DNA of 64,000 bases. It comes from a virus. Shown here piece after piece: positions 1,082 to 58,161 of this stretch. The stretch lies in the UHGV virus genome UHGV-0129253. One strand, 5' to 3'. Below the pieces are notes generated by a model. The model searched no databases. It was not told where the DNA came from and saw nothing but the letters and a program-made list of their open reading frames with translations. The translations under genes and the position numbers were made by a program. The first letter of the stretch is position 1; every line of letters starts with the position of its first letter.

Positions 1082-1140
1082 AAATAAATTGTTTTCTACC
1101 TTTTCTTATTTGTGAAAATAAACCAGCACTTGGTAGTGCT
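1082..1140 (+). promoter_or_regulatory. Early-type promoter module: degenerate palindrome AAATAAATTGTTTT, TGTGAAAAT extended -10-like box, palindrome AGCACTtggtAGTGCT
   Basis: Same ~40-bp module (ATTTGTTTTCTACC...TGTGAAAAT) recurs at 8011 and 12461. Confidence 0.35.
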
Positions 1141-1168
1141 TATGTAACAGCAAAGAAGAGAAAAACAC

Positions 1169-1720
1169 ATGAGTAACAAAATCGAAAATCCCGTAGTTCT
1201 CATTCACAAGCGCGAGAACCACGACTCCTATGCGGTGGCGATCACCAATGGGAGTCACGATTTTTACGATGGCCTGCTAATGGCCTCAGTGTCGCCTGAT
1301 GAGGCAGACAACTCTTTTGCCGTCTTCGCTATGGTTGGTTACTACATGGCTGCCGAAATTGAGAAGTTGCGGGCGCAGAGAGACGCATTAGCGGCGGAGA
1401 ATGTGGCATTGCGATCTAAGGCTGCGGAACTGGCACATGAAGCGTCAAAAATTTACTCGGCATATAACGCCACTATCACAGAGCCTGACGGGGATTTTAT
1501 GGACATGCAGACATTGCATGAAATGCAGTGCATAGAAACTCCAGCCACCGATGCTTTTCTGGCTGAAGTACGTGCGCAGGGCGTGGATATGGCTCGTAAC
1601 GCGATGATTGATTTTGTTGATGGTGAAGTTGGGCCAAACAAGAACGTTCCGGGGCTGATTAGAGGCGCAGAGATATGCGTAAGTATTGCTGAACAGCTTC
1701 GCAAAGGAGGCAACCAGTGA
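1169..1720 (+). CDS. Ead/Ea22-like prophage early protein
   Basis: 183-aa ORF; resembles the ead/Ea22-like family of lambdoid prophage early regions (from memory, not searched). Confidence 0.55.
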   Translation: MSNKIENPVVLIHKRENHDSYAVAITNGSHDFYDGLLMASVSPDEADNSFAVFAMVGYYMAAEIEKLRAQRDALAAENVALRSKAAELAHEASKIYSAYNATITEPDGDFMDMQTLHEMQCIETPATDAFLAEVRAQGVDMARNAMIDFVDGEVGPNKNVPGLIRGAEICVSIAEQLRKGGNQ

Positions 1721-2523
1721 GCAAGATTGACTATCAGGCACTGCGTGAAAAGGCAGAGAAAGCAACGTGTGGCGAGTGGGCGCTAGAATATGGAGATGGC
1801 AGATTTGATGGTGATGATGCACTAATTCATCGCGAGGCTGCTGGATATATTCCCATTTGCAGAATTGAAGGAGCGCATCCTGAAAGCGGTTTCGATGAAG
1901 ATTTCCAAATGGAGCAGCAGGCCAATGCTGAATTCATCGCCGCAGCCAACCCGGCTACTGTGCTGGTATTACTGGATGAACGGGAAAGGAACCAGCAATA
2001 CATCAAACGCCGTGACCAGGAGAACGAGGATATTGCGCTAACGGTTGGGAAGCTGCGCGTTGAGCTGGAAGCCGCAGAGAAGCGCATTGCTGAACTGGAG
2101 TCACTGATGGAACCAAAGTTACCGCAGCCAGCGGTGGTTGACAACGATAAGTTCCGAGCGGATTTTGAACGGTGGATGGTTGAGGATGAAAAGTGCATCG
2201 TAGGAAGCTCTGACCCTTATCCAGCTGGGATTGAGTCACGCAACTGGAGAGCATGGAACGCCTGCCGCGCCGCCATGCTTCAGAGTCAAGATAGTGGCAT
2301 TAAGGATAGCTGGATAAGCTGTAGTGAGCGAATGCCGGATACCAAAACAGCCGTTCTTGTTGCCAAGGAGTTTGATAGGAAAGGTGACTGGCGAATGAAA
2401 TGGGCGACTTACATCCCGGGGCATCCTGACGCTAATGATGGGTGGATCATTCCTGGGGCGTCGTGGAAACCGTCACACTGGATGCAGCTACCAGAACCTC
2501 CGCAGGAGTCGCAGAGTGAATAA
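1717..2523 (+). CDS. Ead/Ea22-like family protein with coiled-coil and Trp-rich C-terminal region
   Basis: 268-aa ORF, GTG start overlapping upstream stop. Confidence 0.5.
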   Translation: MSKIDYQALREKAEKATCGEWALEYGDGRFDGDDALIHREAAGYIPICRIEGAHPESGFDEDFQMEQQANAEFIAAANPATVLVLLDERERNQQYIKRRDQENEDIALTVGKLRVELEAAEKRIAELESLMEPKLPQPAVVDNDKFRADFERWMVEDEKCIVGSSDPYPAGIESRNWRAWNACRAAMLQSQDSGIKDSWISCSERMPDTKTAVLVAKEFDRKGDWRMKWATYIPGHPDANDGWIIPGASWKPSHWMQLPEPPQESQSE

Positions 2524-2737
2524 AGCAGAGTTATTTCAGAAAATATCGGCTCTCGCGACTGAATGTCACGCTATAGCATCTGAGCTTGATGTTGGCGGTG
2601 AACGAACCGAGATGTTCGAAATATACAGTGTGCTGCGCAATCTCTGTCGGCGTGGCTACGCCACTCAAGTAGGGCGAATGACTAACCCACTACTCTCATC
2701 CTGTGATGAGGATGACTCGGATGAGGATGACGAATGA
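2516..2737 (+). CDS. Small hypothetical protein with acidic C-terminus (DEDDSDEDDE)
   Basis: GTG start at 2516 with AGGAG ~9 nt upstream; the ORF track's longer start overlaps the upstream gene. Confidence 0.45.
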   Translation: MNKAELFQKISALATECHAIASELDVGGERTEMFEIYSVLRNLCRRGYATQVGRMTNPLLSSCDEDDSDEDDE

Positions 2738-3399
2738 TGCATAAATCAGTAGCCGGTGAGTTTCAGAAGGAAGTCGATAATACTACCGTTCTATTGGACG
2801 ATATTTTAAGCATTCTCGCGCTTCTTGAGGCTGGCGATTGGTCAGAACATTGCACTAAAACGGAGTTAGGCGGTCGGCTTGAAAGAGAGATTACACGACT
2901 TATTGGTGATGCGCAGGAAGCTACAGTCACTAGTTATGAGTTAATCGCTGAAGCCTGGCGTTTGATGGATGGACAAGATCCTAAAACTAGCGATTGGCAT
3001 AGCAAGGCTTCGAAGTATTTAAATTCCGATAGGGTAGAAAAAGTTGATGATGTGAAACCGAAGCCAGTAGACCACGGTTTCCGCGATAACTGCGAATGCT
3101 CTAGTTGCCAGACCACGGCCCGTATTTGTTCCGAATTGACAGATAAGTCCAGCCTAATCTACGAAGTTAATGTAGGCGGTAATACATGGGTCGAATGCAC
3201 AAGAGCTGCATACGTAAGAGCAAAAGACAAGGGTGAATTAACCAGAGTTGTTGCCCATCACCCAAATAATGAGCTTAAAGATCACCAGATTAGAGAACTG
3301 GTGAACGAGTTGCGGGATATTGCGGTTCAGTACCACGGAACGCAGCAATTGCGGGAGAAAATTGCCAGAGCAGTGAACAACTCAGTCCGTAAAAAATAA
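2734..3399 (+). CDS. Hypothetical protein (Cys cluster CECSSCQ)
   Basis: 221-aa ORF, ATGA overlap with upstream gene. Confidence 0.5.
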   Translation: MMHKSVAGEFQKEVDNTTVLLDDILSILALLEAGDWSEHCTKTELGGRLEREITRLIGDAQEATVTSYELIAEAWRLMDGQDPKTSDWHSKASKYLNSDRVEKVDDVKPKPVDHGFRDNCECSSCQTTARICSELTDKSSLIYEVNVGGNTWVECTRAAYVRAKDKGELTRVVAHHPNNELKDHQIRELVNELRDIAVQYHGTQQLREKIARAVNNSVRKK

Positions 3400-4200: not shown

Positions 4201-4590
4201 ATGGGCTTCCCTTCTCCTGCGGCGGATTATGCTGAGAGCCGTATTTCTCTTGATCAGCAGATAATTAGACATCCTTCAGCGACCTACTTCATGAGGGCAG
4301 CTGATAGTCATCATCGTGAGGGAATATTACAGGGTGCATTGCTGGTGGTCGATTCCTCACTTACCCCGGTTGATGGTTCTCTGCTTGTATGCGCTCTGGA
4401 TGGGGAATATCGCGTAAAAAGATACCGGAAGTACCCACGTCAGCATCTGGAGGATTTAAGAACCGGTAAGAAGGAAGCATTGCCAAAGGATGACGATGGA
4501 TGCACGGGCAGCAATGCCGTGTTTGGTGTGATCACTCACATTATCAACGACGCAAGAAGTGGCGAGTTTGATGATTGTCCTGTGATGTAG
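4201..4590 (+). CDS. UmuD'-like SOS mutagenesis protein (S24 LexA-like peptidase fold), HumD-like pre-processed form
   Basis: MGFPSPAADY...HPSATYF... begins at the UmuD Cys24-Gly25 cleavage position; LexA box upstream; no umuC partner in window. Confidence 0.75.
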   Translation: MGFPSPAADYAESRISLDQQIIRHPSATYFMRAADSHHREGILQGALLVVDSSLTPVDGSLLVCALDGEYRVKRYRKYPRQHLEDLRTGKKEALPKDDDGCTGSNAVFGVITHIINDARSGEFDDCPVM

Positions 4591-4627: not shown

Positions 4628-5728
4628 TCACACTGCGCGGAATGCGATTTCGCCAGGTATTACTTCACCTTGCCAATACATTTGGGCAGCAACGCGATCT
4701 GCGAGGTCACGATAAATAGCCGTAAATTCACTATCTGGACGACTAATAACGGTTGGTGTTCCGTTATCCAGATCTTCACGAAGAGAGATATGAAGTGGCA
4801 TTTGGCCTAACAACTGCGTGTTGTATTTCTCGGCCAGTTTCTGTGCGCCACCGGTGCCAAAAATTGGCTCGTGATGACCGCAGTTACTGCAAATATGCAC
4901 ACTCATGTTTTCGACGATACCCAGTACCGGCACTTCGACTTTTTCGAACATCACAATGCCTTTCTTCGCATCGATCAGCGCGATGTCTTGCGGCGTAGTT
5001 ACCACAACCGCACCAGTTACAGGAATGTTCTGCGCCAGCGTCAACTGAATATCACCAGTGCCCGGCGGCATATCGAGAACGAGATAGTCCAGATCAGGCC
5101 ATATAGTTTCCTGCAACATCTGCATCAGCGCCTTGCTGGCCATCGGTCCACGCCACACCATTGCATTGTCGTCGGTGACCAGATAACCAATAGAGTTGGT
5201 TGCCAGGCCATGAGACATGATAGGTGCCATGTGAGTACCGTCAGGTGAGGTTGGACGTTGGTTTTCCGCGCCCAGCATGGTTGGAATTGATGGACCATAG
5301 ATATCGGCATCCAAAATACCAACTTTCGCACCTTCAGCAGCCAACGCCAGTGCCAGGTTTACCGCCGTGGAGGATTTACCCACGCCGCCCTTGCCTGAGC
5401 TGACGGCGATAATGTTCTTAACGCCATTAATGCCTGGTTGGTTTTTGACGCGCTTAAGCGTGGCAATGTTGTACGACAGCTTCCAGTCAATAGCCTTTGC
5501 GCCAGTGATACGGAGCAGATCACCACTACATTGCTCTTTCAGGTCTTCAAAAGGCTTATTCCACACGAAAGGCATGATTAGTTCGACATGCAGTGTGTCA
5601 TCCATCAACGCAACATGGTGTAACGCTTTAAGCGTAGTCAGGTTGTGTTTCAGGGTTGGGTGCTGAAAATTAGCCAGCGTACCGGCTACCATTGCTCTCA
5701 GGGCATCCGGCGATTTGGACTCGCTCAT
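4628..5728 (-). CDS. mrp: Iron-sulfur cluster carrier ATPase Mrp/ApbC
   Basis: 366 aa, P-loop SSGKGGVGKS, near-full-length match to enterobacterial Mrp; divergent from metG as in E. coli. Confidence 0.9.
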   Translation of the reverse strand: MSESKSPDALRAMVAGTLANFQHPTLKHNLTTLKALHHVALMDDTLHVELIMPFVWNKPFEDLKEQCSGDLLRITGAKAIDWKLSYNIATLKRVKNQPGINGVKNIIAVSSGKGGVGKSSTAVNLALALAAEGAKVGILDADIYGPSIPTMLGAENQRPTSPDGTHMAPIMSHGLATNSIGYLVTDDNAMVWRGPMASKALMQMLQETIWPDLDYLVLDMPPGTGDIQLTLAQNIPVTGAVVVTTPQDIALIDAKKGIVMFEKVEVPVLGIVENMSVHICSNCGHHEPIFGTGGAQKLAEKYNTQLLGQMPLHISLREDLDNGTPTVISRPDSEFTAIYRDLADRVAAQMYWQGEVIPGEIAFRAV

Positions 5729-5885: not shown

Positions 5886-7919
5886 ATGACCCAAGTCGCG
5901 AAGAAAATTCTGGTGACGTGCGCGCTGCCGTACGCTAACGGCTCAATCCACCTCGGCCATATGCTGGAGCACATCCAGGCTGATGTCTGGGTTCGTTACC
6001 AGCGAATGCGCGGCCACGAGGTTAATTTCATCTGTGCCGACGATGCCCACGGTACGCCGATCATGCTGAAAGCGCAGCAGCTTGGTATCACACCGGAGCA
6101 GATGATTGGCGAAATGAGTCAGGAACACCAGACTGATTTCGCAGGCTTTAACATCAGCTATGACAACTATCACTCGACGCACAGCGAAGAGAACCGCCAG
6201 CTGTCTGAGCTTATCTATACTCGCCTGAAAGAGAACGGTTTTATTAAAAACCGCACTATCTCTCAGTTGTACGATCCGGAAAAAGGCATGTTCCTGCCGG
6301 ACCGTTTTGTAAAAGGCACCTGCCCGAAATGTAAAGCGCCAGATCAATACGGCGATAACTGTGAAGTCTGCGGCGCAACATATAGCCCGACTGAATTGAT
6401 CGAGCCGAAATCGGTGGTTTCTGGCGCTACCCCGGTAATGCGTGATTCTGAACACTTCTTCTTTGATCTACCCTCTTTCAGCGAAATGTTGCAGGCATGG
6501 ACCCGCAGCGGCGCGTTGCAGGAGCAGGTGGCGAACAAAATGCAGGAATGGTTTGAATCCGGCCTGCAACAGTGGGATATCTCCCGCGATGCGCCTTACT
6601 TCGGTTTTGAAATTCCGAACGCGCCGGGCAAATATTTCTACGTCTGGCTGGACGCGCCGATTGGCTACATGGGTTCCTTCAAGAATCTGTGCGACAAGCG
6701 CGGCGATACCACCAGCTTCGATGAATACTGGAAGAAAGACTCCACCGCCGAGCTGTACCACTTCATCGGTAAAGATATTGTTTACTTCCACAGCCTGTTC
6801 TGGCCTGCCATGCTGGAAGGCAGCAACTTCCGCAAGCCGACCAACCTGTTTGTTCACGGCTATGTGACGGTGAACGGCGCGAAGATGTCCAAGTCTCGCG
6901 GCACCTTTATTAAAGCCAGCACCTGGCTGAATCATTTTGACGCTGACAGCCTGCGTTACTACTACACTGCGAAACTCTCTTCGCGCATTGATGATATCGA
7001 TCTCAACCTGGAGGATTTCGTTCAGCGCGTGAATGCCGATATCGTGAACAAAGTGGTTAACCTGGCCTCTCGTAATGCAGGCTTTATCAACAAGCGTTTT
7101 GACGGCGTGCTGGCAGGCGAACTGGCTGACCCGCAACTGTACAAAACCTTTACTGATGCCGCTGAAGTGATTGGCGAAGCATGGGAAAGCCGCGAATTTG
7201 GTAAAGCTATCCGTGAAATCATGGCACTGGCTGACCTGGCTAACCGCTATGTCGATGAACAGGCTCCGTGGGTGGTGGCGAAGCAGGAAGGTCGCGATGC
7301 CGATCTGCAGGCGATTTGCTCTATGGGCATTAACCTGTTCCGCGTGCTGATGACTTACCTGAAACCGGTACTGCCGAAACTGACTGAACGTGCAGAAGCA
7401 TTCCTGAATACAGAACTGACCTGGGATGGTATCCAGCAACCGCTGCTGGGCCATAAAGTGAATCCGTTCAAGGCACTGTATAACCGTATCGATATGAAAC
7501 AGGTGGAAGCACTGGTGGAAGCATCCAAAGAAGAAGTGAAAGCCACAGCCGCACCGGTAACTGGCCCACTGGCTGACGACCCGATTCAGGAAACCATCAC
7601 CTTTGACGACTTCGCCAAAGTTGACCTGCGTGTGGCGCTGATTGAAAACGCGGAGTTTGTTGAAGGTTCTGACAAACTGTTGCGCCTGACGCTGGATCTC
7701 GGCGGTGAAAAACGCAATGTCTTCTCAGGCATCCGTTCTGCTTATCCAGACCCACAGGCACTGATTGGTCGTCACACCATTATGGTGGCTAACCTGGCTC
7801 CGCGTAAAATGCGCTTCGGTATCTCCGAAGGCATGGTGATGGCTGCTGGCCCCGGCGGGAAAGATATCTTCCTGTTAAGCCCGGATGTCGGTGCTAAACC
7901 TGGCCACCAGGTTAAGTAA
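5886..7919 (+). CDS. metG: Methionine--tRNA ligase
   Basis: 677 aa from ATG 5886 ([25 protein letters not shown]...); HIGH-type and KMSKS motifs; the ORF track's 5757 start is an upstream artefact. Confidence 0.95.
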
Positions 7920-7941
7920 TTAAGCAACCATTCTTCACAAT

Positions 7942-7965
7942 GCCCAGCAATACGCTGGGCATTTT
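7942..7965 (+). terminator. metG terminator (GCCCAGC...GCTGGGC + TTTT)
   Basis: Hairpin plus T-run 23 nt after stop. Confidence 0.55.
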
Positions 7966-8003
7966 CATATAGACACAACCCCTTCTGACTTTAACAAACC
8001 CTA

Positions 8004-8018
8004 AAACAATTTGTTTTC
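8004..8018. promoter_or_regulatory. Early-type palindrome AAAACAA-T-TTGTTTT
   Basis: Perfect 7-bp arms; upstream of a GATAAT -10-like box. Confidence 0.4.
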
Positions 8019-8052
8019 TACCTTTTATTGATTGAGATAATAAGCCACATAA

Positions 8053-8068
8053 GAAAACAAATTGTTTC
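8053..8068. promoter_or_regulatory. Early-type palindrome GAAAACAAATTGTTTC
   Basis: 13 nt upstream of ATG 8081. Confidence 0.4.
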
Positions 8069-8080
8069 GGAGTGGTTGAA

Positions 8081-8380
8081 ATGTTGAACATTACCCAAGC
8101 CTACCAGGTGGCATTGATCAGTTCATCTCATACATCAGAGGAAGATGCTCGCCGATTCATGATCGCAAGCAATGAGCTGGATTGGGTTTCACAAATTGAC
8201 GGCGGTTGTATTGTCCACGCTGGGTTACAGGATGATGTCTGGAAAGAGGACTTGCGTCGATATGGTATATCCGAAGGCGCGATTGCTAACATTCAGAAAG
8301 TACTTGATGTAGGCTTTGACTCTGTACATTTTGATTGTGGTGCGCCGGTCGTTGAAGGGCTTGAGTGCTGGAACTGGTAA
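8081..8380 (+). CDS. Hypothetical protein
   Basis: ATG 8081 with GGAG upstream. Confidence 0.5.
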   Translation: MLNITQAYQVALISSSHTSEEDARRFMIASNELDWVSQIDGGCIVHAGLQDDVWKEDLRRYGISEGAIANIQKVLDVGFDSVHFDCGAPVVEGLECWNW

Positions 8381-8425
8381 CAGATATTAAAGCATTGGTA
8401 GTTTGTTTTTAGGATTATCAAAGAA

Positions 8426-9160
8426 ATGAAAAAGTTGAAAAGTTTAGAAATCCCTGGGACTGGTTATAAATTCTTTATGGACAACGCGGAGTGTGCACCT
8501 AACGCGTTGGAAAAAATACAAAGTCTTATCAACAGCCTTACTGAAGAAGCGAAAGAACTGAATAGCGAGGCGACAAAGGACAATACAGCTAAAATCCAAT
8601 GCTTAAATCTCGTTTCTTATTGTTTATATCAAGTGTCCAAGACACTGATTAAAGGCAATATCTATTACGACGATGAAGACACCTCGACACCTGAAGAAAA
8701 AGATAGCGATGAAGAACTCTATGAAGATATCTCTACTAGTGCGGGTCACGCTGCCTTCGATGCTATGGGTAAATCGTCAGGCATCAGATCGTTTGTTGAA
8801 CAGAACAATTCGACAATAATGATTGAGTACTGTGAACAAACAAGCTCCAAGGCCATACATGTTCTTCACGATGTTGCTGCAGGGGTTCGCTGTGAGGCTG
8901 AAGCGGTCAGAAAAGATGTATTTGGTGCAGACAGTAATACCGTGAAAGCGTTCATCAACAGTGCTCTGCTAAATTCTTACTCAAACCTTATCGTCAATGC
9001 GGCACTATGCGCAAATTCTGGTGAAGAACACATTGTCATAACCGAAACCAAATATGAGCATCAACAGTCACCAACCATAGAAGAGGTAACTGCATTGGCT
9101 ATCAAACAGGCGAGTGAAATTAGTGATGAAATTCTCTCTCTGCTAAACAAAACTAAGTAA
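8426..9160 (+). CDS. Hypothetical acidic protein
   Basis: 244-aa ORF with acidic stretches (DDEDTSTPEEKDSDEELYED). Confidence 0.5.
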   Translation: MKKLKSLEIPGTGYKFFMDNAECAPNALEKIQSLINSLTEEAKELNSEATKDNTAKIQCLNLVSYCLYQVSKTLIKGNIYYDDEDTSTPEEKDSDEELYEDISTSAGHAAFDAMGKSSGIRSFVEQNNSTIMIEYCEQTSSKAIHVLHDVAAGVRCEAEAVRKDVFGADSNTVKAFINSALLNSYSNLIVNAALCANSGEEHIVITETKYEHQQSPTIEEVTALAIKQASEISDEILSLLNKTK

Positions 9161-9229
9161 AACATTGATAATGGCGGTCACAATTTGATTCTTTTCTATA
9201 AGAATCCGTTGATCGCCACTACTCCCCTT

Positions 9230-10020
9230 CCATGCCTGGAATCACATCCTTAAATATCAATAGGTTACAGTTGTTTATACCAATAAGAAAACAACTGAAT
9301 AACAGATCAACGAAACATCAACGCTTTCACCCGATTTGGTCTAAAAAATTGACGTTTTCACACATCACTGCTTATACCCGTAATTCTACGCAGCAGACAG
9401 CGCCACAGCGTCCAATTTTCACCACAGACGACCCAACACACTACCAACAAAAACACACGCTCAAAATCGCTCCCGTTGCGTTACACAACCATATAAACAA
9501 CTTATTTTCAGGTATAACGAAACAACTAAATAACACATATGCCATTTCCAAAAACAACCAACCTCTTTATGGCAGGCTACCGAAAAGACCCACCTCTTCT
9601 CCCCAGGCTACCGGACAACCAACCTAACTTTCACAGGCAATCCGAAAACATTCATACGCGCGATACCCACGACACGCCATTACCCAAACAGCGAAGAAAC
9701 ACCAGAATCACTGAACCCCCAACGAAGCCTGTAACCGCAAGGCTTCTCTCAATCCCAAAAGACACGAAACAGAACAATCACGGGAAACGCCATTACCCAA
9801 CACACGAATAACTACAAAAGCCTTTCACACACTCCAGACAAACAACTCAAACACAATAACGAAAGGAATCGCCCACCTGCCATTACTCCATACACGGAGA
9901 AGAACAATCACCAAAACGACGAGAACACCCCATAGAAGAACCACCGCAAAACGAACGAAACCACATACACCGACAGAGAAAACAACACACCCAATTCACC
10001 AACAGAAATAGTCGCCGTAT
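9230..10020. other. G-depleted A+C-rich noncoding tract (~0.8 kb)
   Basis: Plus strand ~12-15% G by hand count on three 60-nt lines; ORFs in it translate to low-complexity sequence. Confidence 0.5.
9551..9653 (+). repeat. Direct repeats of CAGGCTACCG(A/G)A(A/C)AA..CC(A/C)ACCT (3-4 copies)
   Basis: Same family recurs at 13565-13648. Confidence 0.4.
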
Positions 10021-10219
10021 AGAACGTTCTGGAAGGAGTGAGCATTAACGCCTATAGAGAGGTTGAAACAGATAAAACACGAAGAAAACACAACATGTAT
10101 AGCGAACAAGACAGGTATGTATAAGTGGGGAGGGAAGGAGGGGTGTTGCCTCCTTTTTCGTATTTATTCAACTCCTGATTTTATCCCCCGTAACACCCCT
10201 ACGGTCAGCCTTCGGTCCA

Positions 10220-10360
10220 TACAGGGAAAAGGCTGCATCCTGCTACAGAAACGGCTGGGTTGCCTTCGGGGAACGGCTGGGGATTTTCAGGGAAACGGTC
10301 GAGTTGCCTGTGTGGATTTCGGGAAAAGGCTCGATGCCGGTTCAGGAACGGTGGCGTACC
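10220..10360 (+). repeat. Iteron array: six copies of (C)(A/G)GGAAA(A/C)GGCTG at ~21-24 bp spacing, with a DnaA-box-like TGTGGATTT
   Basis: Copies at 10222, 10246, 10268, 10288, 10320, 10343. Confidence 0.5.
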
Positions 10361-10690
10361 GGTATAGCGTGAGGGAGAGTTGCGGCTACCCACCTGTAAT
10401 GTGCGGGAAGAAGAGAGGCGCTCACGTGCAGGCGAACTTACTTACCGCAGGATTCCCTCTGAATGCCCAACTACAGCGTAATTGTGCCAGACAGCCAACG
10501 GGTCACAATCGATTTCAGTAGGTTTTCGGGGAGATGATTATTCTGCCCACCAGCCACCTTCGGCCACTAAATCAGAATAATGTAAAAAGTGTACTCGGTA
10601 CTGAACCTGAAAACTCACTGCCAAAACCACATTCACCGGAATAAAATCCTTTTCCGCCTTTGTCTTATTGCGATAATAACACCAACAAGT

Positions 10691-10704
10691 AAACAACATG
10701 TTTA
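10691..10704. promoter_or_regulatory. Early-type palindrome AAACAACATGTTTA after a GATAAT box
   Basis: Module CGATAAT(A/T)ACACCAACAAG-AAACAA..TGTTT shared with 13180 and 13670. Confidence 0.35.
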
Positions 10705-10735
10705 GACGTTATATAAACGAAGTGAGGATGAAGAG

Positions 10736-10954
10736 ATGATTAAGATGCCTGTGACGGTTGAGGTGTGGGGCGTGGATTCCCTGGCTGAGTGTCTGGATGC
10801 AGTGGGGCCGGAGTTGTACCGCAAGTTGTGGTCGTTCGTCCCGGCAGAAGGGGAATCGCCCAAAGGGAAGGATATCTGGCACCTGCTGAGTGAAGATGAA
10901 AAGCGAGAGCTGGTGGACGCGGTACACAGCGAGTTCCCGGGCGACGAAGATTAA
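10736..10954 (+). CDS. Small acidic hypothetical protein
   Basis: 72 aa; GTGAGGATG upstream; terminator downstream. Confidence 0.5.
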   Translation: MIKMPVTVEVWGVDSLAECLDAVGPELYRKLWSFVPAEGESPKGKDIWHLLSEDEKRELVDAVHSEFPGDED

Positions 10955-10961
10955 GAGTGAG

Positions 10962-10983
10962 GCCACCAGCACGGTGGCTTTTG
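10962..10983 (+). terminator. Terminator hairpin GCCACCAGCACGGTGGC + TTTTG
   Basis: One of a family of AAGGCCACCA...TGGTGGCCTT hairpins (also 11434, 13053, 13525). Confidence 0.5.
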
Positions 10984-11066
10984 TCGCTATTAACCTCCGG
11001 GGCAGCGCAGCACCGTAACGATATACTTTGTGGCCGTTTTCTTACTGGTATTGTTTACGCAATTCA

Positions 11067-11083
11067 GAAAACAACATGTTTAA
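11067..11083. promoter_or_regulatory. Early-type palindrome GAAAACAACATGTTTAA
   Basis: Downstream of a TATTGT -10-like box; module shared with 11520. Confidence 0.35.
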
Positions 11084-11093
11084 GGATTGCGTT

Positions 11094-11423
11094 ATGTTTG
11101 CAAATATCGACATCAACCAAATTAAGAAATTAACTCAAAAAGAGTTTGATCAGTTTTATGAGTTAGAAGGTTGGTCTTCCACTCTGATCAATTCGCGGTG
11201 GGTGCTTGAGCTGATGACTCGTGATGACGCACCTGCTTTGATGATTTGCGACATGGGTGAAGATGCTGACTTTATGGATATGAGCGAATTTTGTGTGGAC
11301 ACATACAACCGCAGCCAGAAGTACTACTTCACATGCGATAGCGAAAATGACGTGATTTCTAAGGTCTATCTTCACCTCGTCCAGCATTGGGACGTTCAGG
11401 AGTTTCTTGAAGTATTCGAGTAA
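11094..11423 (+). CDS. Hypothetical protein
   Basis: ATG 11094 with AAGGA 7 nt upstream; the longer track start lacks an RBS. Confidence 0.45.
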   Translation: MFANIDINQIKKLTQKEFDQFYELEGWSSTLINSRWVLELMTRDDAPALMICDMGEDADFMDMSEFCVDTYNRSQKYYFTCDSENDVISKVYLHLVQHWDVQEFLEVFE

Positions 11424-11550
11424 CCCCAACCAAAGCCAGCAATGCTGGCTTAATTTCTCTATAGCCGCAGGGAAGAACCTGCATATAGCTCATGCACCTG
11501 ATCAATATGCTTTGTAGCCGTTTTCTTACTGGTATTATTTACGCCATTGA

Positions 11551-11567
11551 GAAAACAAGTTGTTTAC
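11551..11567. promoter_or_regulatory. Early-type palindrome GAAAACAAGTTGTTTAC
   Basis: Follows a TATTAT -10-like box. Confidence 0.35.
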
Positions 11568-11576
11568 GGAGTTGTG

Positions 11577-11888
11577 ATGAAAAAATCATTGGTTCTTGGT
11601 CTGGACAAAGACCAGAAGAGAAAAGAGAAGCCTGCACTGGTTGCTCAATTAACTTTGCTAGACATCGTTGCCAATGGAACCTCTATTCGTCTGTTCCGTG
11701 AAACAGCGGTGTCTTTCGATAAAAACACCTTTACTCGTTATGTAATGAATGTTCGTCGCCAGCGTGGAAAAGGCTGGATGGCATTTCAAAGAATGTGGCC
11801 GGAACATCAGCTCGAACTGGCTTTGATGGAAGTTAACCGCGTGGCCCAGCAAGAAATTCAGAGAGCATCAGTGATGGCAATAGCCTGA
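11577..11888 (+). CDS. Hypothetical protein
   Basis: ATG 11577 with GGAG upstream. Confidence 0.5.
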   Translation: MKKSLVLGLDKDQKRKEKPALVAQLTLLDIVANGTSIRLFRETAVSFDKNTFTRYVMNVRRQRGKGWMAFQRMWPEHQLELALMEVNRVAQQEIQRASVMAIA

Positions 11889-11922
11889 TAATGTGCAAGT
11901 GGTAATTAGTCGACAGTACGAC

Positions 11923-11951
11923 AGCCCCGCCATCCTTACGGGGCTTTTTTG
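11923..11951 (+). terminator. Rho-independent terminator (AGCCCCG...CGGGGCT + TTTTTT)
   Basis: Hairpin plus T6. Confidence 0.65.
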
Positions 11952-12014
11952 TATTGTAAGTACATACTTACGATCATAGAATAGAAAAATAACCAATACA
12001 CTACGGAGAGTGAA

Positions 12015-12410
12015 ATGACCATTAAACGCGAAAAACTGACAGTTGATGTTTACTATGCCTCTGAAACCGCCGAAGGTAAGAATGTGGCAAAAATCACCGT
12101 TGTTACGTACAACACCGAAACTGGCGCCGAAGTACAGGCCAGTACGATCGTGCGTAAAGGTGATGCCTCCGACGGCGAGTACGCGATTCAATACCAGTCT
12201 ATTTTCGATGCAACTGACCCGCTGCTGCTGAAAATCGAGAACTACTTCCGCCAGGTTGATGAAGAGGTGTTTGAACCAATGATGAATATGGTTGACACCG
12301 TATTCGCCTCCAACCTGAATACCAACACTGCCTGGATTGGTCAGTACGGCCTGCGCATTACCTCTGGCATTCCTGCCGACACCTTAATCCCTGAAAGCGT
12401 ATTCGCTTAA
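12015..12410 (+). CDS. Hypothetical protein
   Basis: 131-aa ORF with GGAGAG RBS. Confidence 0.55.
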   Translation: MTIKREKLTVDVYYASETAEGKNVAKITVVTYNTETGAEVQASTIVRKGDASDGEYAIQYQSIFDATDPLLLKIENYFRQVDEEVFEPMMNMVDTVFASNLNTNTAWIGQYGLRITSGIPADTLIPESVFA

Positions 12411-12446: not shown

Positions 12447-12456
12447 TATGCCCGAT

Positions 12457-12500
12457 AACAATTTGTTTTCTGCCTTATCTGATTTGTGAAAATGATTTCA
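12457..12500 (+). promoter_or_regulatory. Early-type promoter module (AACAATTTGTTTTCTGCC...TGTGAAAAT)
   Basis: Third copy of the module seen at 1082 and 8004. Confidence 0.35.
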
Positions 12501-13036: not shown

Positions 13037-13203
13037 ATCGGGCGATAATTATTAAGGCCACCAGCATTGGTGGTCTTAAATGACTTTTAATAACCGAAGG
13101 TTAGTTTGAAACCTGGCTATCAACTTCCAGAACCTTTCTTGTGTATTCAGCCTGTATTAACTTCTTTTATGCCTTATCTACACTGCGATAATTACACCAA
13201 CAA

Positions 13204-13220
13204 GAAAACAACATGTTTAC
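13204..13220. promoter_or_regulatory. Early-type palindrome GAAAACAACATGTTTAC after GATAAT
   Basis: Module shared with 10670 and 13670. Confidence 0.35.
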
Positions 13221-13648: not shown

Positions 13649-13688
13649 TTTGACGCCTTATTCGTACAACGATAATTAACACCAACAA

Positions 13689-13703
13689 GAAAACAATTTG
13701 TTA
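13689..13703. promoter_or_regulatory. Early-type palindrome GAAAACAATTTGTTA after GATAAT
   Basis: ~20 nt upstream of ATG 13724. Confidence 0.35.
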
Positions 13704-22810: not shown

Positions 22811-22846
22811 CTTCGTAAGACATGCCAGACCTAATTAAACACCCCA

Positions 22847-22861
22847 GAAAACAAGTTGGTT
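22847..22861. promoter_or_regulatory. Early-type half-palindrome GAAAACAAGTTGGTT
   Basis: Upstream of TerS-like gene. Confidence 0.3.
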
Positions 22862-22872: not shown

Positions 22873-22888
22873 TAAACAAGTTGTTTTA
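22873..22888. promoter_or_regulatory. Early-type palindrome TAAACAAGTTGTTTTA
   Basis: ~40 nt upstream of ATG 22927. Confidence 0.35.
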
Positions 22889-52707: not shown

Positions 52708-53229
52708 TTATTCTTCGAACAATTTTTCGATAGATTTTGTTGGATAGAACAAAGAACGATCGTTGTTACCAACCAGCTGGATAAAGCCCAAACTTTTATA
52801 AAACGCCCTGGCTTTATCGTTCAACGCCTCAACGAAAAGCCCATGAATGCCTACCGCAAGAGATGCATTGTACACAACACGCATTGCGTGAGTTACAAGC
52901 ATTGAGCCAAGCCCCTGACCTTGAAGAGATTTGTCCAAAGCCAGTCTGCCTAAAGTGATACTTGGGACATTCCGATAAGGCACTTTCTTTTGCTGACTCT
53001 TTGAAGGTAAGGTTTCTTTCTCAAAGCAGCTGCCTGACAAAGTGTAATAACCTAATACCTTTGGTATTTCTTCTTTAGTGCAAAGCACATAAGCGCGAAG
53101 AATTTTTCCTTCATGCTGTCTTTTTAAGTGGTTGGTCAAAAATGCGTTTAGTGACTCTTCGCCGCAATCAAAACCGTTTAGATCATAATCGTTCTCTCCA
53201 GAGAAAATCTCGATCGTCGTATTGCTCAC
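52708..53229 (-). CDS. GNAT-family toxin (TacT/AtaT/KacT-like type II TA toxin)
   Basis: 173 aa GNAT; paired with upstream DUF1778-type antitoxin. Confidence 0.75.
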   Translation of the reverse strand: MSNTTIEIFSGENDYDLNGFDCGEESLNAFLTNHLKRQHEGKILRAYVLCTKEEIPKVLGYYTLSGSCFEKETLPSKSQQKKVPYRNVPSITLGRLALDKSLQGQGLGSMLVTHAMRVVYNASLAVGIHGLFVEALNDKARAFYKSLGFIQLVGNNDRSLFYPTKSIEKLFEE

Positions 53230-53236
53230 GAGTAAA

Positions 53237-53506
53237 TTACTCCATGCTTTTCAGACGATTGGCAGCTCGTTTCAGCTTGTCGTTCGGTGCCGGAGGATTG
53301 CTTATAGCATCCATAACCAGATTCCAGGACTCTTCACTTAGAACCAGTCTACGGTGTTGCTCTATCACCTTCACGGCACGTTCGGATGCACTGCTAACCA
53401 TGAACTGGGTAATGCTCTGGTTAGACATTGCGGCAGCTTCCTCGATGATGCTTTTATCGTCATCGGTTAATCTCAAATCGATGCGCTGCTTTTTCAGTGC
53501 GGACAT
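53237..53506 (-). CDS. DUF1778 / RHH antitoxin (TacA/AtaR-like)
   Basis: 89 aa, 7 nt upstream of the GNAT gene on the same strand. Confidence 0.75.
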   Translation of the reverse strand: MSALKKQRIDLRLTDDDKSIIEEAAAMSNQSITQFMVSSASERAVKVIEQHRRLVLSEESWNLVMDAISNPPAPNDKLKRAANRLKSME

Positions 53507-53775
53507 GTGTACCCCCTGATGGCCGGTGATGTAGGAAGGCCATCATTGCTCTCTATTTAAACTGAGTTTTCGACTCAAAGGTTATTTAACTGGGCTATAG
53601 CCCATTGCGTATGTGTCATCAAATTGTGTACGGCAATTTACCGTACTCGTAATATAGAGATGATTGTCACTTTTTTCAACAGACAAATGAAAACAGTTAC
53701 TAGCAATAGGCAATAACAACCTACTAAATAACCTTTACACCGCAGCCGTAGGCATTTAGGCTATATCACATATAA

Positions 53776-53791
53776 GAAAACAAGTTGTTTC
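53776..53791. promoter_or_regulatory. Early-type palindrome GAAAACAAGTTGTTTC upstream of the ParA-like gene
   Basis: 35 nt upstream of ATG 53826, followed by GATAAT. Confidence 0.4.
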
Positions 53792-53825
53792 AGACGATAA
53801 TTATATACGCAAAGGGAACTCTCCA

Positions 53826-54494
53826 ATGACCAAGATCTTTGTGGTTGGCGGCACAAAGGGCGGGCCTGGCAAATCCACTGTTGCCCAGCAAATTGCCGTT
53901 TGCCTGAAAGTCAAAAAGAAGAAGAAGGTTTATATCACTGATATAGATATTCAGCGCACGACAACAAGCTGGTGTGAAGACCGTAGACAGAACGAAGACC
54001 TTGAGCTGATTCCTTTTGCATACGTTCAGGATGACATCATTAAGCACCTAAAATCGCTTCAGGGTAGAGCTGAGTTTGTAGTGGTAGATGCTGGTGGCTT
54101 TGACTCCGAAATTCAGCGACAAGCGATGCTGATGGCCGACGTTATCATTATCCCGCTTCGTCCCAAGCGTCGTGATTTGAAATCTCTGCGTGACATTGAT
54201 CCTATTATCGACAATGTTCGTAATGTAAACGATAAAGTGAAGGTCCGCGCGGTCATGAACCAGTGCCCGGCTTTGCCATCACAAGTGTCTCGCATTCTGG
54301 CGGCTAAAGAGATTGTTGAGACGTTTGGCATCGAGTCTGCGCCAGTCAATTTATATAACCGCAACGTCTATGATGATGCGGAAGAGTCTGGTCGTTCTAT
54401 CTTTGAAATGACCGGTAGCGAGCGCGACAAAAAGGCGGAAGCCGAGTTTGAAGAATTTGTAGATTATCTGTTGAGTCTGGAGGAAGAAGAATAA
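53826..54494 (+). CDS. ParA/ParF-type partition ATPase
   Basis: Deviant Walker A GGTKGGPGKST; 222 aa. Confidence 0.8.
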   Translation: MTKIFVVGGTKGGPGKSTVAQQIAVCLKVKKKKKVYITDIDIQRTTTSWCEDRRQNEDLELIPFAYVQDDIIKHLKSLQGRAEFVVVDAGGFDSEIQRQAMLMADVIIIPLRPKRRDLKSLRDIDPIIDNVRNVNDKVKVRAVMNQCPALPSQVSRILAAKEIVETFGIESAPVNLYNRNVYDDAEESGRSIFEMTGSERDKKAEAEFEEFVDYLLSLEEEE

Positions 54495-54853
54495 TGTCCA
54501 TGAAAATGGGTGACCTAGCAAAGCGCAAAGAGCCTGATGCACCGGCCAAGAACACAACTCCTTTGCGCCAACCAGTCAGACCACAGGGACGCCCGACTCG
54601 TGGCAAAGAGAAAATTAAAAGCCGCACAATGTCACTGGAGGACGAATACTTCGAACTGCTGGAAATGATGAAGTTCATCCCTCGTTTCGAGAAGTTCACC
54701 CGTTCTGACGTGATTCGCGCAGCCATTTTCCATCTGGCAGAGAAGTCACCGCAGGAAATCGAGGACATCGTGAAATTGAATGAGGCGATCACCGCTGCCG
54801 ATGTCACGATGCGTACCGATGAAATCAAACGAGAGTTGATGAAGAAAGGTTAA
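54494..54853 (+). CDS. Putative partition partner (ParG/ParB-like, basic N-terminus)
   Basis: 119 aa, start overlapping ParA-like stop. Confidence 0.5.
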   Translation: MSMKMGDLAKRKEPDAPAKNTTPLRQPVRPQGRPTRGKEKIKSRTMSLEDEYFELLEMMKFIPRFEKFTRSDVIRAAIFHLAEKSPQEIEDIVKLNEAITAADVTMRTDEIKRELMKKG

Positions 54854-54858
54854 AAATC

Positions 54859-54889
54859 ATGCATTGGCGCGTACATTGCGCCAATGCAT
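54859..54889. terminator. Perfect palindrome ATGCATTGGCGC-gtacatt-GCGCCAATGCAT between convergent genes
   Basis: 12-bp arms; bidirectional terminator or centromere-like site. Confidence 0.45.
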
Positions 54890-54905
54890 AACTACAGTGT
54901 CAGCT

Positions 54906-55673
54906 TTATGCCGCGCTAACACTATGTTCAGTCCTAACCACCCCAACCTTCACAAAAGGGCTACCGTAGCTTGGTGGCTTCTTGATTAATTTGCCTACAT
55001 ACAGTTTTCTAATATGCTCATCGGCTATTCTGCCAACAAATTCATAACGTTTTGTGTCGGGGCCAAGAGCTATATCCCTTGTAAAGTACTGCTGAGAACC
55101 GGCTTTGACCCAGCATTCAATCTGATAAACTTCCATTATTAGCCCACCATATGTAGCGTAGGCATATTTGAGATTCTCGTCTCTTGGAACCTTTGCCCAT
55201 ACGCCACGCGTAGCTTCATATAATGCCAGAGCGGACATTCCTGACTTGTAGGTGCTGTTTAGCAGGAAGGCAAGACCGGCGTGCTCAGGAGCAATTTCAG
55301 TTTCCTCTTGCAGCACTAAGTGATGGTAGGCGTCCAGTGATATTCTGCCCATCATGGAACCACTTCCTCGTACCTTATTCGTAAGCTCTCCGACCCCCAT
55401 AAGGTCGATGCATGTCGCCTCAACAAGTTTGGCTGTGGTTTCATCCATACCATGACGAAGAATATCTATGCCTAATTTTTTATTAGCCAAAAGTTCTTTG
55501 ATCCGCATGGATTTGGGAGAGTCATCGGGATACTTGATGTGATCGAGACAACGAGTCGATTTGCCTTTTCCTATGTAAAACGGTCTTTTCATCTTGTCTT
55601 CTGTATCATAGAGGCAGTAAACATAGTATTTAGCCTTATCCAATGATCTCGCGTATACCGATAAATCGTCCAT
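54906..55673 (-). CDS. GIY-YIG nuclease-domain protein
   Basis: N-terminal YYVYCLYD...RPFYIGKGKSTR motif; 255 aa. Confidence 0.6.
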   Translation of the reverse strand: MDDLSVYARSLDKAKYYVYCLYDTEDKMKRPFYIGKGKSTRCLDHIKYPDDSPKSMRIKELLANKKLGIDILRHGMDETTAKLVEATCIDLMGVGELTNKVRGSGSMMGRISLDAYHHLVLQEETEIAPEHAGLAFLLNSTYKSGMSALALYEATRGVWAKVPRDENLKYAYATYGGLIMEVYQIECWVKAGSQQYFTRDIALGPDTKRYEFVGRIADEHIRKLYVGKLIKKPPSYGSPFVKVGVVRTEHSVSAA

Positions 55674-55784
55674 TATTGCATCTCTTTGCTACTGACTAAT
55701 GCGTTCTATTTTACACATAAGTTTTTAATCAATTTAACAGGCTCAAAGTGTAGAGCTTCTGGGCGTCTAAGACGACAAGTTATG

Positions 55785-55839
55785 CCTGCTTCTGTATATA
55801 TAAATAATAAGTAACTTATTAAATATATACGGAAGCAGG
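55785..55839. repeat. 55-bp AT-rich long hairpin, copy 2 (identical to 22756-22810)
   Basis: Exact repeat read directly. Confidence 0.6.
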
Positions 55840-55922
55840 TCTTTTAAAAGACACCACCAGAACAACTCCCTTCCGTTTCCACTTCCAAAAACTGCCACCA
55901 GTCGCTATCATCCGCTCATCGT

Positions 55923-55944
55923 GATAAGTAAGTAACTACCTACC
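55923..55944. promoter_or_regulatory. Late-type motif GATAAGTAAGTAACTACCTACC
   Basis: Upstream of gene 55956. Confidence 0.35.
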
Positions 55945-55955
55945 AGGTGAGCCAC

Positions 55956-56696
55956 ATGAGCCAGATCTTTTTCGATACCATCGACAACGACCAGTACGAC
56001 TTCATGACAGAGTGGAATACCGCTGTTATGGACAAGTGGGTCGCTGAAAACATTGGTTTGTCGCGCTGTAAAGACGAGGCTGAACTCTTCGAGACGAAGT
56101 GGTTTGATTACCGCGACATGCATCCTCTCATGGCCACCTGTCTTTTTACGGAGGCATACAAACGTCAGTACTCAAATATCATGCTGACGCACGGTCGCGA
56201 ACACTTTGAAACAGCTCCGTTCACCACCGGGTTAAAACGCCTGCCTTATCAGGAGTTGTCGACTGCCAATAAAACGTCGCTATGGAAAGCGCGCCAGTTT
56301 GCGGATCGCTATTGCTGCTCATACGACTACTTTATCTCCACCGTTCTTTCCGCAGCTGCACGACGGCTGTGGGACAAGCTGCCGCGCCCACAGCATTTAT
56401 GGCAGCAAGAACTGATTGAGATATTCGAAGAGAAATTAGCCAGACGCGCAACAACCCGTCTGGATGACTCTCTGGTTAGCTTTAAGCATATGGGGGACAT
56501 GCAGTTCAACCCGATTCAGGAAAGCTATTTTGAGTGGATTCTGGAGCGTTTACGCACCATCCCTCGCAGCAAGCGCATACGCGCAATTTTCTCCGCTATC
56601 TGGCTAATGGAAATCGTTCCAGAGCGCCTTATTTCCGCCCACTTTCCAGAAGAACTGGAAGAAGCACGGCGGTTTATTGATCCCCTATCTAATTAA
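55956..56696 (+). CDS. Hypothetical protein, first gene of the replication module
   Basis: ATG 55956 (track gives GTG 55947). Confidence 0.45.
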   Translation: MSQIFFDTIDNDQYDFMTEWNTAVMDKWVAENIGLSRCKDEAELFETKWFDYRDMHPLMATCLFTEAYKRQYSNIMLTHGREHFETAPFTTGLKRLPYQELSTANKTSLWKARQFADRYCCSYDYFISTVLSAAARRLWDKLPRPQHLWQQELIEIFEEKLARRATTRLDDSLVSFKHMGDMQFNPIQESYFEWILERLRTIPRSKRIRAIFSAIWLMEIVPERLISAHFPEELEEARRFIDPLSN

Positions 56697-56705
56697 CTAA
56701 TACTA

Positions 56706-56721
56706 GAAAACAATTTGTTTA
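56706..56721. promoter_or_regulatory. Early-type palindrome GAAAACAATTTGTTTA
   Basis: 19 nt upstream of helicase ATG. Confidence 0.4.
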
Positions 56722-56739
56722 AAAAACAAAGGAAAGCAC

Positions 56740-58080
56740 ATGACCGAACTTTGCCATACAGGACGCGGGCTGTCCGAAGAGTTTGATGAAGATTTTCAGA
56801 ACAGATTGACGGCCTATTTTTGTCGTGATCACGAGTTTCTTACTCGTGCTGGAGATCTGGTTGTACCTAGCCAATTTGCCAATGCGGCCAATGCCATATT
56901 GGTTAATATGGTTTCGGGCTATTACCGTATGTACAAGAGCGCGCCCTCTTCATCTGCGATTCTGGATATGCTTAAGCGTGCGAAACGCGATAAGACTATC
57001 CGTGAGGAACTATTCGCCGATGTTGTTGCTGCGTTTAAGCGCATCCTTGCAGAAAAATTGTCTGATACCTCGTACATGGTTGACCAGGTATCAACCTTCG
57101 CAAAAAGCGTAGCGTTTGATGATGCTCTGATTAAGGCTGCTGAACTGAAAGAGAAAGGCGACTTTCAGGGGGCGATGGCAATCATGGCCAAGGTTCAGCA
57201 GATTGGATCGAACGAAGCGACCGGAATCTATGACTACTACACCTCCGCAAGTGAGCGATTGAAAGCGCGTGAATATGAGGCTTCAGAGGAGTATGTACCA
57301 AACAGTATTACAACTGGACTCCCTCTTCTCGATAGGTTGCTGTACCAAAAAGGCTGGGCAAAGCGCGAAATGGTGCTCTTCATGGGGTTCGCTAAATCCG
57401 GTAAATCGACCGCAATGGGTGAGTTTTCCATAAACGCAACGCTTGCTGGCTACAATGTTCTGTATCTCTCGCTGGAGGTTCACACCACCATTTTATCCGA
57501 CCGTTTTGATGCAAGATTGTCGGAGACAGAAATGTCCAAGCTGGTGGAACGGCGCGATGAGGTTCATCGTAAGTTGGCAGAGTTGGGAGCCACGAAGGGG
57601 ATTGGTAGTTTGTGGGTTGTTGAGCGTCCGTCAGGAAGTATGTCACCGGCAGATCTGGATCGTATGCTTAACAGCATGAAAGCCAATGGCATGGTGCCTG
57701 ACATGGTTGTTGTCGACTATGCAGATTTGATGCGTGCCAGTTATGACCTTCGTGATGATCGCGCCAACATACGTAGTATCTATACCGACTTACGTGCTCT
57801 TTATGACAAACACAACGTTGCTGGTATCACAGCATCGCAAACAAACCGTGAAGGTGGCGCGTCAGAAGTTGCCACAATGATGCACGCTGCCGACAACATC
57901 GAAAAAGTACGTATTGCTGACCTGGTAATAACGATCAACAAAACCGAAGAAGAAGAAGCGAAAGGAGAGGCTCGTCTCTACTTTGCTGGTTCACGTAACC
58001 AGCAGGGAGGGATCAGCATTCGCGTTAAACAAAACCTCGAACAAATGCGCTTCATTGAGCGAATCTTAGACGTTACCTAA
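56740..58080 (+). CDS. DnaB-family replicative helicase
   Basis: Walker A GFAKSGKST, Walker B VVVDYADLM, SQTNRE motif. Confidence 0.7.
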   Translation: MTELCHTGRGLSEEFDEDFQNRLTAYFCRDHEFLTRAGDLVVPSQFANAANAILVNMVSGYYRMYKSAPSSSAILDMLKRAKRDKTIREELFADVVAAFKRILAEKLSDTSYMVDQVSTFAKSVAFDDALIKAAELKEKGDFQGAMAIMAKVQQIGSNEATGIYDYYTSASERLKAREYEASEEYVPNSITTGLPLLDRLLYQKGWAKREMVLFMGFAKSGKSTAMGEFSINATLAGYNVLYLSLEVHTTILSDRFDARLSETEMSKLVERRDEVHRKLAELGATKGIGSLWVVERPSGSMSPADLDRMLNSMKANGMVPDMVVVDYADLMRASYDLRDDRANIRSIYTDLRALYDKHNVAGITASQTNREGGASEVATMMHAADNIEKVRIADLVITINKTEEEEAKGEARLYFAGSRNQQGGISIRVKQNLEQMRFIERILDVT

Positions 58081-58161
58081 AAAATAAGCGTGGAGAACAC
58101 CTCCACGCTTGATTCATTGGTGAAACAACTTTTCTTTTGCCAAACCACAAAAGAAAAACAC

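Follow-up and report, generated by a model that had tools for sequence, protein, structure and literature searches.

The 64,000-nucleotide stretch of the virus genome UHGV-0129253 analysed here (hereafter the window) is part of an Escherichia coli phage-plasmid of the SSU5/pSLy3 type, and it carries a family of short palindromes, AAACAA-N-TTGTTT, on the predicted promoters of its partition, replication, packaging and accessory genes. Judging from the sequence, symmetry and placement of these palindromes, we propose that they are probably DNA operators for one twofold-symmetric, sequence-specific binding protein encoded by the phage-plasmid itself, and that this protein is most likely a repressor. 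Once bound it would block either the binding of RNA polymerase or its escape from the promoter, each site lying within the polymerase-covered region of a predicted sigma-70 promoter, and about 11 promoter regions in the window, with about 19 sites in the 108-kb element, would switch together. The regulon would comprise the operons for partition, for helicase and primase and for late packaging, together with a series of single-gene accessory cassettes that each have a flanking terminator. An earlier, sequence-only reading of the window had suggested a shared operator for the accessory genes, parA and the helicase; promoter placement, dyad symmetry, conservation and the silence of nearly all downstream genes in a lysogen favour that suggestion, but the regulon appears larger than was supposed, extending to the late/packaging (terS) operon and, outside the window, to cobT, nrdB, tciA and others.

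The element is 97-99% identical to phage Cyrano (pLF82, OV696614). Window positions 7900-14300 are 94-98% identical to Escherichia phage Cyrano and related records, and positions 53000-60000 and 1-25000 are 97-99.5% identical to many E. coli plasmids of about 108 kb. On the Cyrano map, position 22793 of the window is position 1, in the terS region; the window starts at about 84.7 kb there and ends at about 39.4 kb. The complete genomes compared were those of Cyrano, SSU5, Klebsiella phage pJN2-26 and the Yersinia pestis plasmid pMT1.

Sequence and promoter placement of the palindromes

The motif is present at all 13 positions where the sequence-only reading had listed a copy (see Table 1), and its description needs correcting. 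The gap between the half-sites, given there as 1-3 nt, is constantly 1 nt, AAACAA-N-TTGTTT (equally AAACA-N3-TGTTT), and it seemed to vary because the central triplet does (ACA/TGT), the triplet being A-N-T, ACA or TGT. Across a set of 54 distinct sites, taken from the window and from relatives and biased because the matrix that picked them was built from the same sites, the consensus is AGA-AAACAA-N-TTGTTT-a, with a palindromic core of 13 bp. The core has six position pairs, at each of which 46-54 of the 54 sites are palindromic, and the deviations are one-sided in 23 cases and compensatory in none. Outside the core, the three positions of the AGA are kept on one side only, in 51, 50 and 49 of the 54 sites.

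The family is far in excess of chance. Exact matches number 6 in the window as compared to 0.05 in 100 dinucleotide shuffles, and if one mismatch is tolerated the count rises to 14, as compared to 0.49 in 200 such shuffles, in which the maximum was 3. Motif frequency in shuffled intergenic sequence had been put forward as the check on the family, and here too the excess is clear, with 10 matches in about 7 kb of intergenic sequence against 0.035 in 1000 composition-preserving shuffles. A crude gene model placed four matches inside open reading frames; three of these (11069, 11553 and 13206) are intergenic by the Cyrano annotation or by PHROG-supported starts, and by this standard 13 of the 14 matches are intergenic, all of them 11-81 nt before plus-strand genes. 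The 14th, at 9495, is within coding sequence and has a poor score, and it probably does not belong to the family. Matches with a 3-nt gap at 4060, 40457 and 58123 were set aside as non-members.

All promoters and transcription starts discussed here are sequence predictions. The accessory-gene promoters have conserved extended -10 boxes (TGnGATAAT, TGnTATTAT, TGnGAAAAT) and poor -35 boxes, and relative to these the palindromes fall into two classes. In class A (centres at 8061, 10697, 11075, 11559, 13212 and 13697, with many more in SSU5 and pJN2-26) the centre lies 20-21 nt after the last -10 base, at about +14, the range widening to 17-21 nt when all sites in the relatives are included. In class B (1088, 8010 and 12462, with three in SSU5 and more in pJN2-26) the centre lies exactly 31 nt before the last -10 base, at about -38, and the AGA arm is inverted, so that AGA faces the -10 box in both classes. 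One promoter may carry a copy of each class, the two then lying 51 bp apart, as at 8010/8061 in the window, 88325/88376 and 93668/93719 in SSU5 and 28545/28596 in pJN2-26. When the regions upstream of parA from eight diverse relatives are aligned, the only conserved blocks are the -35 box, the -10 box and the motif, and no operator-like element besides the motif is seen in that promoter.

The sequence-only reading had placed the copies beside or downstream of a GATAAT/TATTAT -10-like hexamer. Ten copies do lie downstream of such a box, whereas three (1082, 8004 and 12456) are inverted and upstream, overlapping the -35 position at about -38, and the hexamers, though present, are mostly of the extended (TGn) type. 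It also had the copies usually just after a terminator hairpin; such terminator-like hairpins directly precede 1082 and 12456, lie some 40 nt ahead of 8004 and stand 100-140 nt ahead of 11553, 13206 and 13691. The tiny upstream open reading frames that it ascribed to an embedded ATG are probably incidental; the three ACA-TG copies have no ribosome-binding site ahead of them, and ACA is one of the allowed variants of the central triplet.

The folding energy of the palindrome as RNA is only about -0.7 kcal/mol, with z-scores near 0, so that it is no more stable than shuffled sequences and forms no stable hairpin; an Rfam scan likewise gave no match at the motif, its only hits being three tRNAs elsewhere. 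A dyad that has no counterpart in RNA structure speaks for recognition of double-stranded DNA by a symmetric protein. Alternatively, the motif might act in the mRNA, as an operator in the 5' untranslated region beside the ribosome-binding site, for a translational repressor such as the FljA-like protein encoded at 16618-17217 (minus strand) or one resembling T4 RegA. Class A copies would indeed be transcribed, 11-40 nt before start codons and in several cases touching the Shine-Dalgarno sequence, and the element does encode a conserved FljA-family protein (Pfam Flag1_repress, 2.5e-84), FljA being reported to prevent translation of the fliC mRNA (PMC2652032). Against this stand the missing hairpin and Rfam match, a dyad symmetry without compensatory changes, as is expected of double-stranded DNA and not of a single-stranded RNA site, and the class B copies, whose place is ahead of promoters and behind terminators. 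The motif, moreover, is missing from the fliC leader of E. coli, and for this reason we rejected the FljA-like protein as acting on an RNA target through it. We regard an RNA operator as quite unlikely.

Conservation and expression in the lysogen

Genome-wide, the sites number about 19 in Cyrano, about 21 in SSU5 and 17 in Klebsiella phage pJN2-26. They recur at the orthologous promoters of terS, parA, dnaB, cobT, nrdB and the homologues of CYRAN_58 and CYRAN_87, and are found at lineage-specific accessory cassettes as well. Upstream of dnaB and parA the motif is invariant across about 85 loci, drawn from IMG/VR and GTDB genomes; before dnaB it reads TAGAAAACAA-N-TTGTTTAA, any of the four bases being found at the centre, and the flank next to the -10 box has at least three unrelated forms. 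Two relatives with a helicase identity of 70-80% (L007 and L008) retain the motif at both parA and dnaB. The plasmid pMT1 (NC_003134.1; L217/L218) has six intact copies, at 28504, 28529, 37418, 37910, 50073 and 89265, at the promoters it retains; it is without the SSU5-type parA, the ribbon-helix-helix (RHH) adaptor gene, dnaB and the primase gene, and has a P1-type ParAB instead. A scan of IMG/VR with the exact 17-mer returned SSU5-like contigs mixed with chance hits, and its result was not used.

This pattern bears on whether the repeats have any function of their own, or are leftovers of duplicated promoter cassettes. The accessory-region copies share a promoter flank of about 40-60 bp (a GCC-T-rich spacer, TGnGATAAT and CACCAAC) and are thus paralogous cassettes, as a neutral origin would have it. 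However, at least eight sites (those of terS, parA, dnaB, cobT, nrdB, CYRAN_58, tciA and CYRAN_87) have no common flanks beyond the motif, so that the family is not merely a set of duplicated promoter cassettes, and the motif stays fixed while its flanks change between orthologues. Repeats devoid of function are therefore an extremely improbable explanation.

A conserved transcription factor of the Enterobacteriaceae, recruited by the phage-plasmid, is another possible binder. It would suit the occurrence of the same motif in relatives from Escherichia, Salmonella, Klebsiella, Kluyvera and Buttiauxella, and the retention of sites by pMT1 though several element-encoded candidates are absent there. 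On the other hand, a distant syntenic relative of the same phage type, L093, lacks the motif and has in its parA promoter (3237-3259) a different palindrome, CTTGTATAA-N5-TTATACAAG, which is single and not dispersed; and some 20 sites per element at fixed promoter positions suit a dedicated regulator better. We also know of no E. coli factor whose consensus matches the motif, and we count this against a host factor, which we judge very unlikely.

The E. coli strain LF82 is a Cyrano lysogen, and its RNA-seq values (normalised; S1 table of PMC9928086) have a prophage median of 9.8. Of the 15 genes directly downstream of sites, 11 are at or below prophage background, though their promoters look constitutive: terS stands at 7.1, cobT at 7.8, CYRAN_58 at 5.7, CYRAN_85 at 7.0, CYRAN_87 at 7.1, CYRAN_93 at 6.3, CYRAN_101 at 7.5, CYRAN_108 at 5.7 and CYRAN_110 at 6.7. 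Above background are parA at 50 (5x), dnaB at 21 (2x) and CYRAN_111 at 26. These values are compatible with repression in the lysogen, yet do not single out the regulon.

Silence in the lysogen is also what one would see if the motif were the site of a phage-encoded activator, or a promoter-specificity element, marking a temporal class of promoters that is off when the activator is absent. The promoters have no good -35 boxes, class B centres, at about -38, lie near the position of class II activators, and conserved winged-helix-like proteins that are themselves silent in the lysogen are encoded at 22465-22731, just before the terS sites, and at 62049-62264. Most sites, however, lie past the -10 box (about +14) or over the dnaB start, where activators do not work; extended -10 promoters need neither a -35 box nor an activator; and parA and dnaB have reasonable -35 boxes (TTTACA and TTGATC) together with expression in the lysogen. 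An activator site is, in our judgement, unlikely.

Several observations weigh against the repressor operator that we prefer. Because of the AGA on one side the site is not symmetric, and a simple symmetric dimer leaves this unexplained. In the lysogen parA and dnaB are above background, and across the five conditions of the LF82 RNA-seq the genes behind the motif show no difference from the rest of the silent prophage genes. A generic promoter scan called none of these promoters, a miss that we attribute to the poor -35 boxes, and the fixed spacing within the accessory cassettes may in part come from common descent of whole promoter cassettes and not from selection.

Candidate regulators

As the motif-binding regulator we tentatively propose the RHH protein of 119 aa encoded directly after parA (the CYRAN_29 homologue; Table 1), the best of the candidates though a doubtful one. 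It would act like pSM19035 omega or ParG, as a partition adaptor and a global repressor in one. In this protein a linker joins the conserved N-terminal tail, MGDLAKR, to an RHH-like pattern, IKSRTMSLEDEYFELL...TRSDVIRAAIFHLAE, and in its predicted strand KSRTMS the residues S43-S47 do not vary in any of the orthologues found together with the motif. It matches the RHH family aCcr1 weakly, and a Pfam RHH_1 or RHH_3 match was obtained for 7 of 61 remote homologues. A small Walker-type ParA gene followed by a small RHH protein gene is the gene order of type Ib partition, and the homologue is expressed in the lysogen, at 89. In L093, where the motif is absent and another palindrome occupies the parA promoter, the homologue has a different strand (GRMVSM), a single data point that is compatible with the candidate. 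A first AF2 model, from a 12-sequence alignment, was of low confidence and its Foldseek matches were meaningless; a search of PDB sequences and an hhalign comparison with a ParG sequence were both uninformative.

Other findings count against this candidate. The par locus has one copy of the motif, with no repeat array in 53400-56800 and no such tandem repeats in the window. Six sites persist in pMT1 without parA or the adaptor, though pMT1 is near-identical to SSU5 and the divergence is too small for a real test. There are, in addition, other small DNA-binding candidates: the proteins encoded at 22465-22731 and 62049-62264 mentioned above, both weakly winged-helix-like, and the RHH-like protein encoded at 17635-17913 (minus strand).

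The last of these genes, which lies just downstream of a UvsW-like helicase gene (the CYRAN_117 homologue), has a lysogen expression of 114. We rejected its product as the binder on the ground that the predicted DNA-facing strand differs between Cyrano and SSU5, whose motifs are nevertheless identical. A weak motif match at the start of the gene is a coding coincidence, absent in SSU5. CYRAN_45, the only annotated "putative repressor" of Cyrano, was likewise rejected, because SSU5 has the complete motif set without having this gene, and because the promoter of CYRAN_45 itself carries no motif. So was the S24 protein encoded at 4201-4590, "LexA-like" in the Cyrano annotation, which is of the HumD/UmuD' type and no repressor, and is absent from SSU5; its gene is among the top lysogen-expressed genes.

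Individual sites, neighbouring genes and related systems

Table 1. Window coordinates of the motif copies, parA and the candidate regulator gene, with their surroundings (SD, Shine-Dalgarno sequence)
Feature	Position	Strand	Context
Motif, class B	1082..1097	-	Centre 1088, about -38 of extended -10 TGtGAAAAT (-10 at 1114-1119); Eae-like gene 1169-1720; terminator hairpin 1061-1081 directly before
Motif, class B	8004..8019	-	TGaGATAAT (-10 at 8036-8041) ends 31 nt past centre 8010; upstream member of 51-bp pair
Motif, class A	8052..8067	+	Centre 8061, 20 nt past -10 (about +14); downstream member of 51-bp pair; then SD GGAG and ATG of CYRAN_101 homologue (DUF5983)
Motif, class A, triplet ACA	10688..10703	+	-10 TGcGATAAT ends at 10677; then gene 10736-10954
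Motif, class A, triplet ACA	11066..11081	+	-10 TGgTATTGT ends at 11054; then gene ~11094-11423
Motif, class A, exact	11550..11565	+	-10 TGgTATTAT ends at 11538; then gene 11577-11888
Motif, class B	12456..12471	-	TGtGAAAAT (12488-12493) ends 31 nt past centre 12462; after terminator hairpin GGCGCG..CGCGCC; gene start probably 12525 (PHROG profile)
Motif, class A, triplet ACA	13203..13218	+	-10 TGcGATAAT ends at 13192; then gene 13241-13519
Motif, class A	13688..13703	+	-10 GATAAT ends at 13676; then gene 13724-14206
Motif, first of two 25 bp apart	22846..22861	+	Leader of late/packaging operon; downstream of 55-bp palindrome and weak TAATTA box
Motif, second before terS, exact	22874..22886	ambiguous	Terminator-like hairpin 22889-22917 next, then terS ATG at 22927
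Motif, parA promoter, exact	53775..53790	+	-35 TTTACA (53734-53739), 17-bp spacer, -10 TAGGCT (53757-53762); centre 53784, about +15
parA	53826..54494	+	Small Walker-type partition ATPase, 222 aa; first gene of the operon with the motif in its promoter
RHH protein gene, candidate regulator	54494..54853	+	119 aa; directly after parA; CYRAN_29 homologue
Motif before DnaB-like helicase gene, exact	56705..56720	+	Adjoins -10 AATACT/TAATAC (56698-56704); conserved -35 TTGATC (56677-56682); centre 56714, about +4

Among the genes next to these sites, the annotated starts of CYRAN_108 and CYRAN_105 fall within the predicted -10 box and within the palindrome, respectively (window 12486-12530 and 11069-11100); both are probably mis-annotated, the PHROG profiles favouring the downstream ATGs at 12525 and about 11094. 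Near terS, the hairpin at 22889-22917 (AGAGCGCATGGACGCGCTCT then GTGTGTTTT), between the motif pair and the start codon, is terminator-like and kept in SSU5, pMT1 and pJN2-26; the late operon may need antitermination. An AT-rich, near-perfect palindrome of about 55 bp, CCTGCTTCTGTATATATAAATAATAAGTAACTTATTAAATATATACGGAAGCAGG, occurs in two copies, one at 22757-22811, just upstream of the late/terS promoter, and one at 55785-55839, upstream of dnaB, where it separates the GIY-YIG gene from the CYRAN_31 homologue. Its possible roles are those of a centromere, an origin, or a site for packaging or for a ParB-like protein.

That GIY-YIG (LEM-3-like) nuclease gene, at 54906-55673 (minus strand), stands in the place of Cyrano CYRAN_30, and the swap marks a variable spot directly after the par operon. 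On the other side of the operon, divergent from parA, a KacT/DUF1778 pair (a GNAT toxin-antitoxin) at 52708-53506 (minus strand) is among the top lysogen-expressed genes. In L093, four tandem 9-bp units (CTTTAAGAG/T) lie at about 4750-4790, just downstream of the par operon, and may be its centromere. The FljA-family protein encoded at 16618-17217 matches the Pfam family "repressor of phase-1 flagellin" and includes a stretch weakly resembling Hfq; it is kept in Cyrano (CYRAN_114), SSU5, pMT1 and pJN2-26, and suggests that these phage-plasmids may shut off host flagellin. The tRNA cluster at 63479-63725 consists of Asn, Tyr and Thr, and the Cyrano annotation at the same place reads Asn, Thr and Ser.

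The motif resembles several dispersed operator regulons and, by its sequence, is a member of none of them: those of P1 C1, RK2 KorB and N15 SopB, and, especially if the RHH adaptor should prove to bind it, those of omega and ParG. The omega protein of pSM19035/Inc18 and ParG of TP228 are likewise small RHH proteins encoded beside a small Walker-type ParA with a binding site in the par promoter, and there too one protein serves several maintenance promoters, as is proposed here on the assumption that the RHH protein binds. The motif can even be read as two inverted 7-bp units (AAAACAA / TTGTTTT), like the omega diheptad. In contrast, omega and ParG bind clustered arrays (7-10 heptads or 4-bp boxes) at few promoters, whereas here the 13-bp palindrome occurs singly, or twice at a distance of 51 or 25 bp, at about 20 promoters scattered over a 108-kb phage genome and including the late operon. 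The omega site, WATCACW, is unrelated to the motif in sequence, and the clustered repeats of a type Ib centromere are missing here from the par locus.

P1 is also a phage-plasmid with one operator type scattered before unrelated operons, among them that of a DnaB-type helicase (ban), which is off in the lysogen. The C1 operators are asymmetric 17-mers, ATTGCTCTAATAAATTT, bound by monomeric C1; the motif described here is a 13-bp palindrome of another sequence, and no C1-like protein was found among the candidate proteins scanned. The OB sites of KorB in RK2/IncP and the SopB sites of N15 are, like the motif, dispersed 13-bp palindromes at set distances from promoters, where they serve both global repression and partition, through proteins of the ParB family with a helix-turn-helix. 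Their sequences, TTTAGCSGCTAAA and TGGGACCNNGGTCCCA, differ from the motif, and the two genes with a ParB-N domain found here (19558-20906) are silent in the lysogen and located in the packaging region.

We found no description in the literature searched of the motif, of operators or of regulatory circuits in SSU5-type elements, and a 2024 review gives no lysis-lysogeny circuit for this group; the control of lysis-lysogeny and of maintenance in SSU5-type phage-plasmids is thus essentially undescribed. At this stage we can do little more than speculate how a single RHH adaptor might fill that role: were it to bind all of the roughly 20 palindromes, it could segregate the plasmid prophage and at the same time repress the promoters for the helicase, nucleotide metabolism, accessory genes and late packaging, the operators forming a distributed centromere. 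A higher copy number, or the adaptor being lost, would then titrate the repressor away and help to push the element from plasmid maintenance into lytic growth.

Phage-plasmids of the SSU5/pHCM2/pSLy3/pKpn/pMT1 type are among the commonest large extrachromosomal elements of clinical Enterobacteriaceae, and some carry resistance genes. One recognisable putative operator marks about 20 promoters of such an element, including those of partition, the replicative helicase and the late operon, so that the regulon can be defined from sequence in every relative. The motif thereby offers an experimental handle for finding the regulator, and for studying how plasmid partition may be coupled with the silencing of phage genes.

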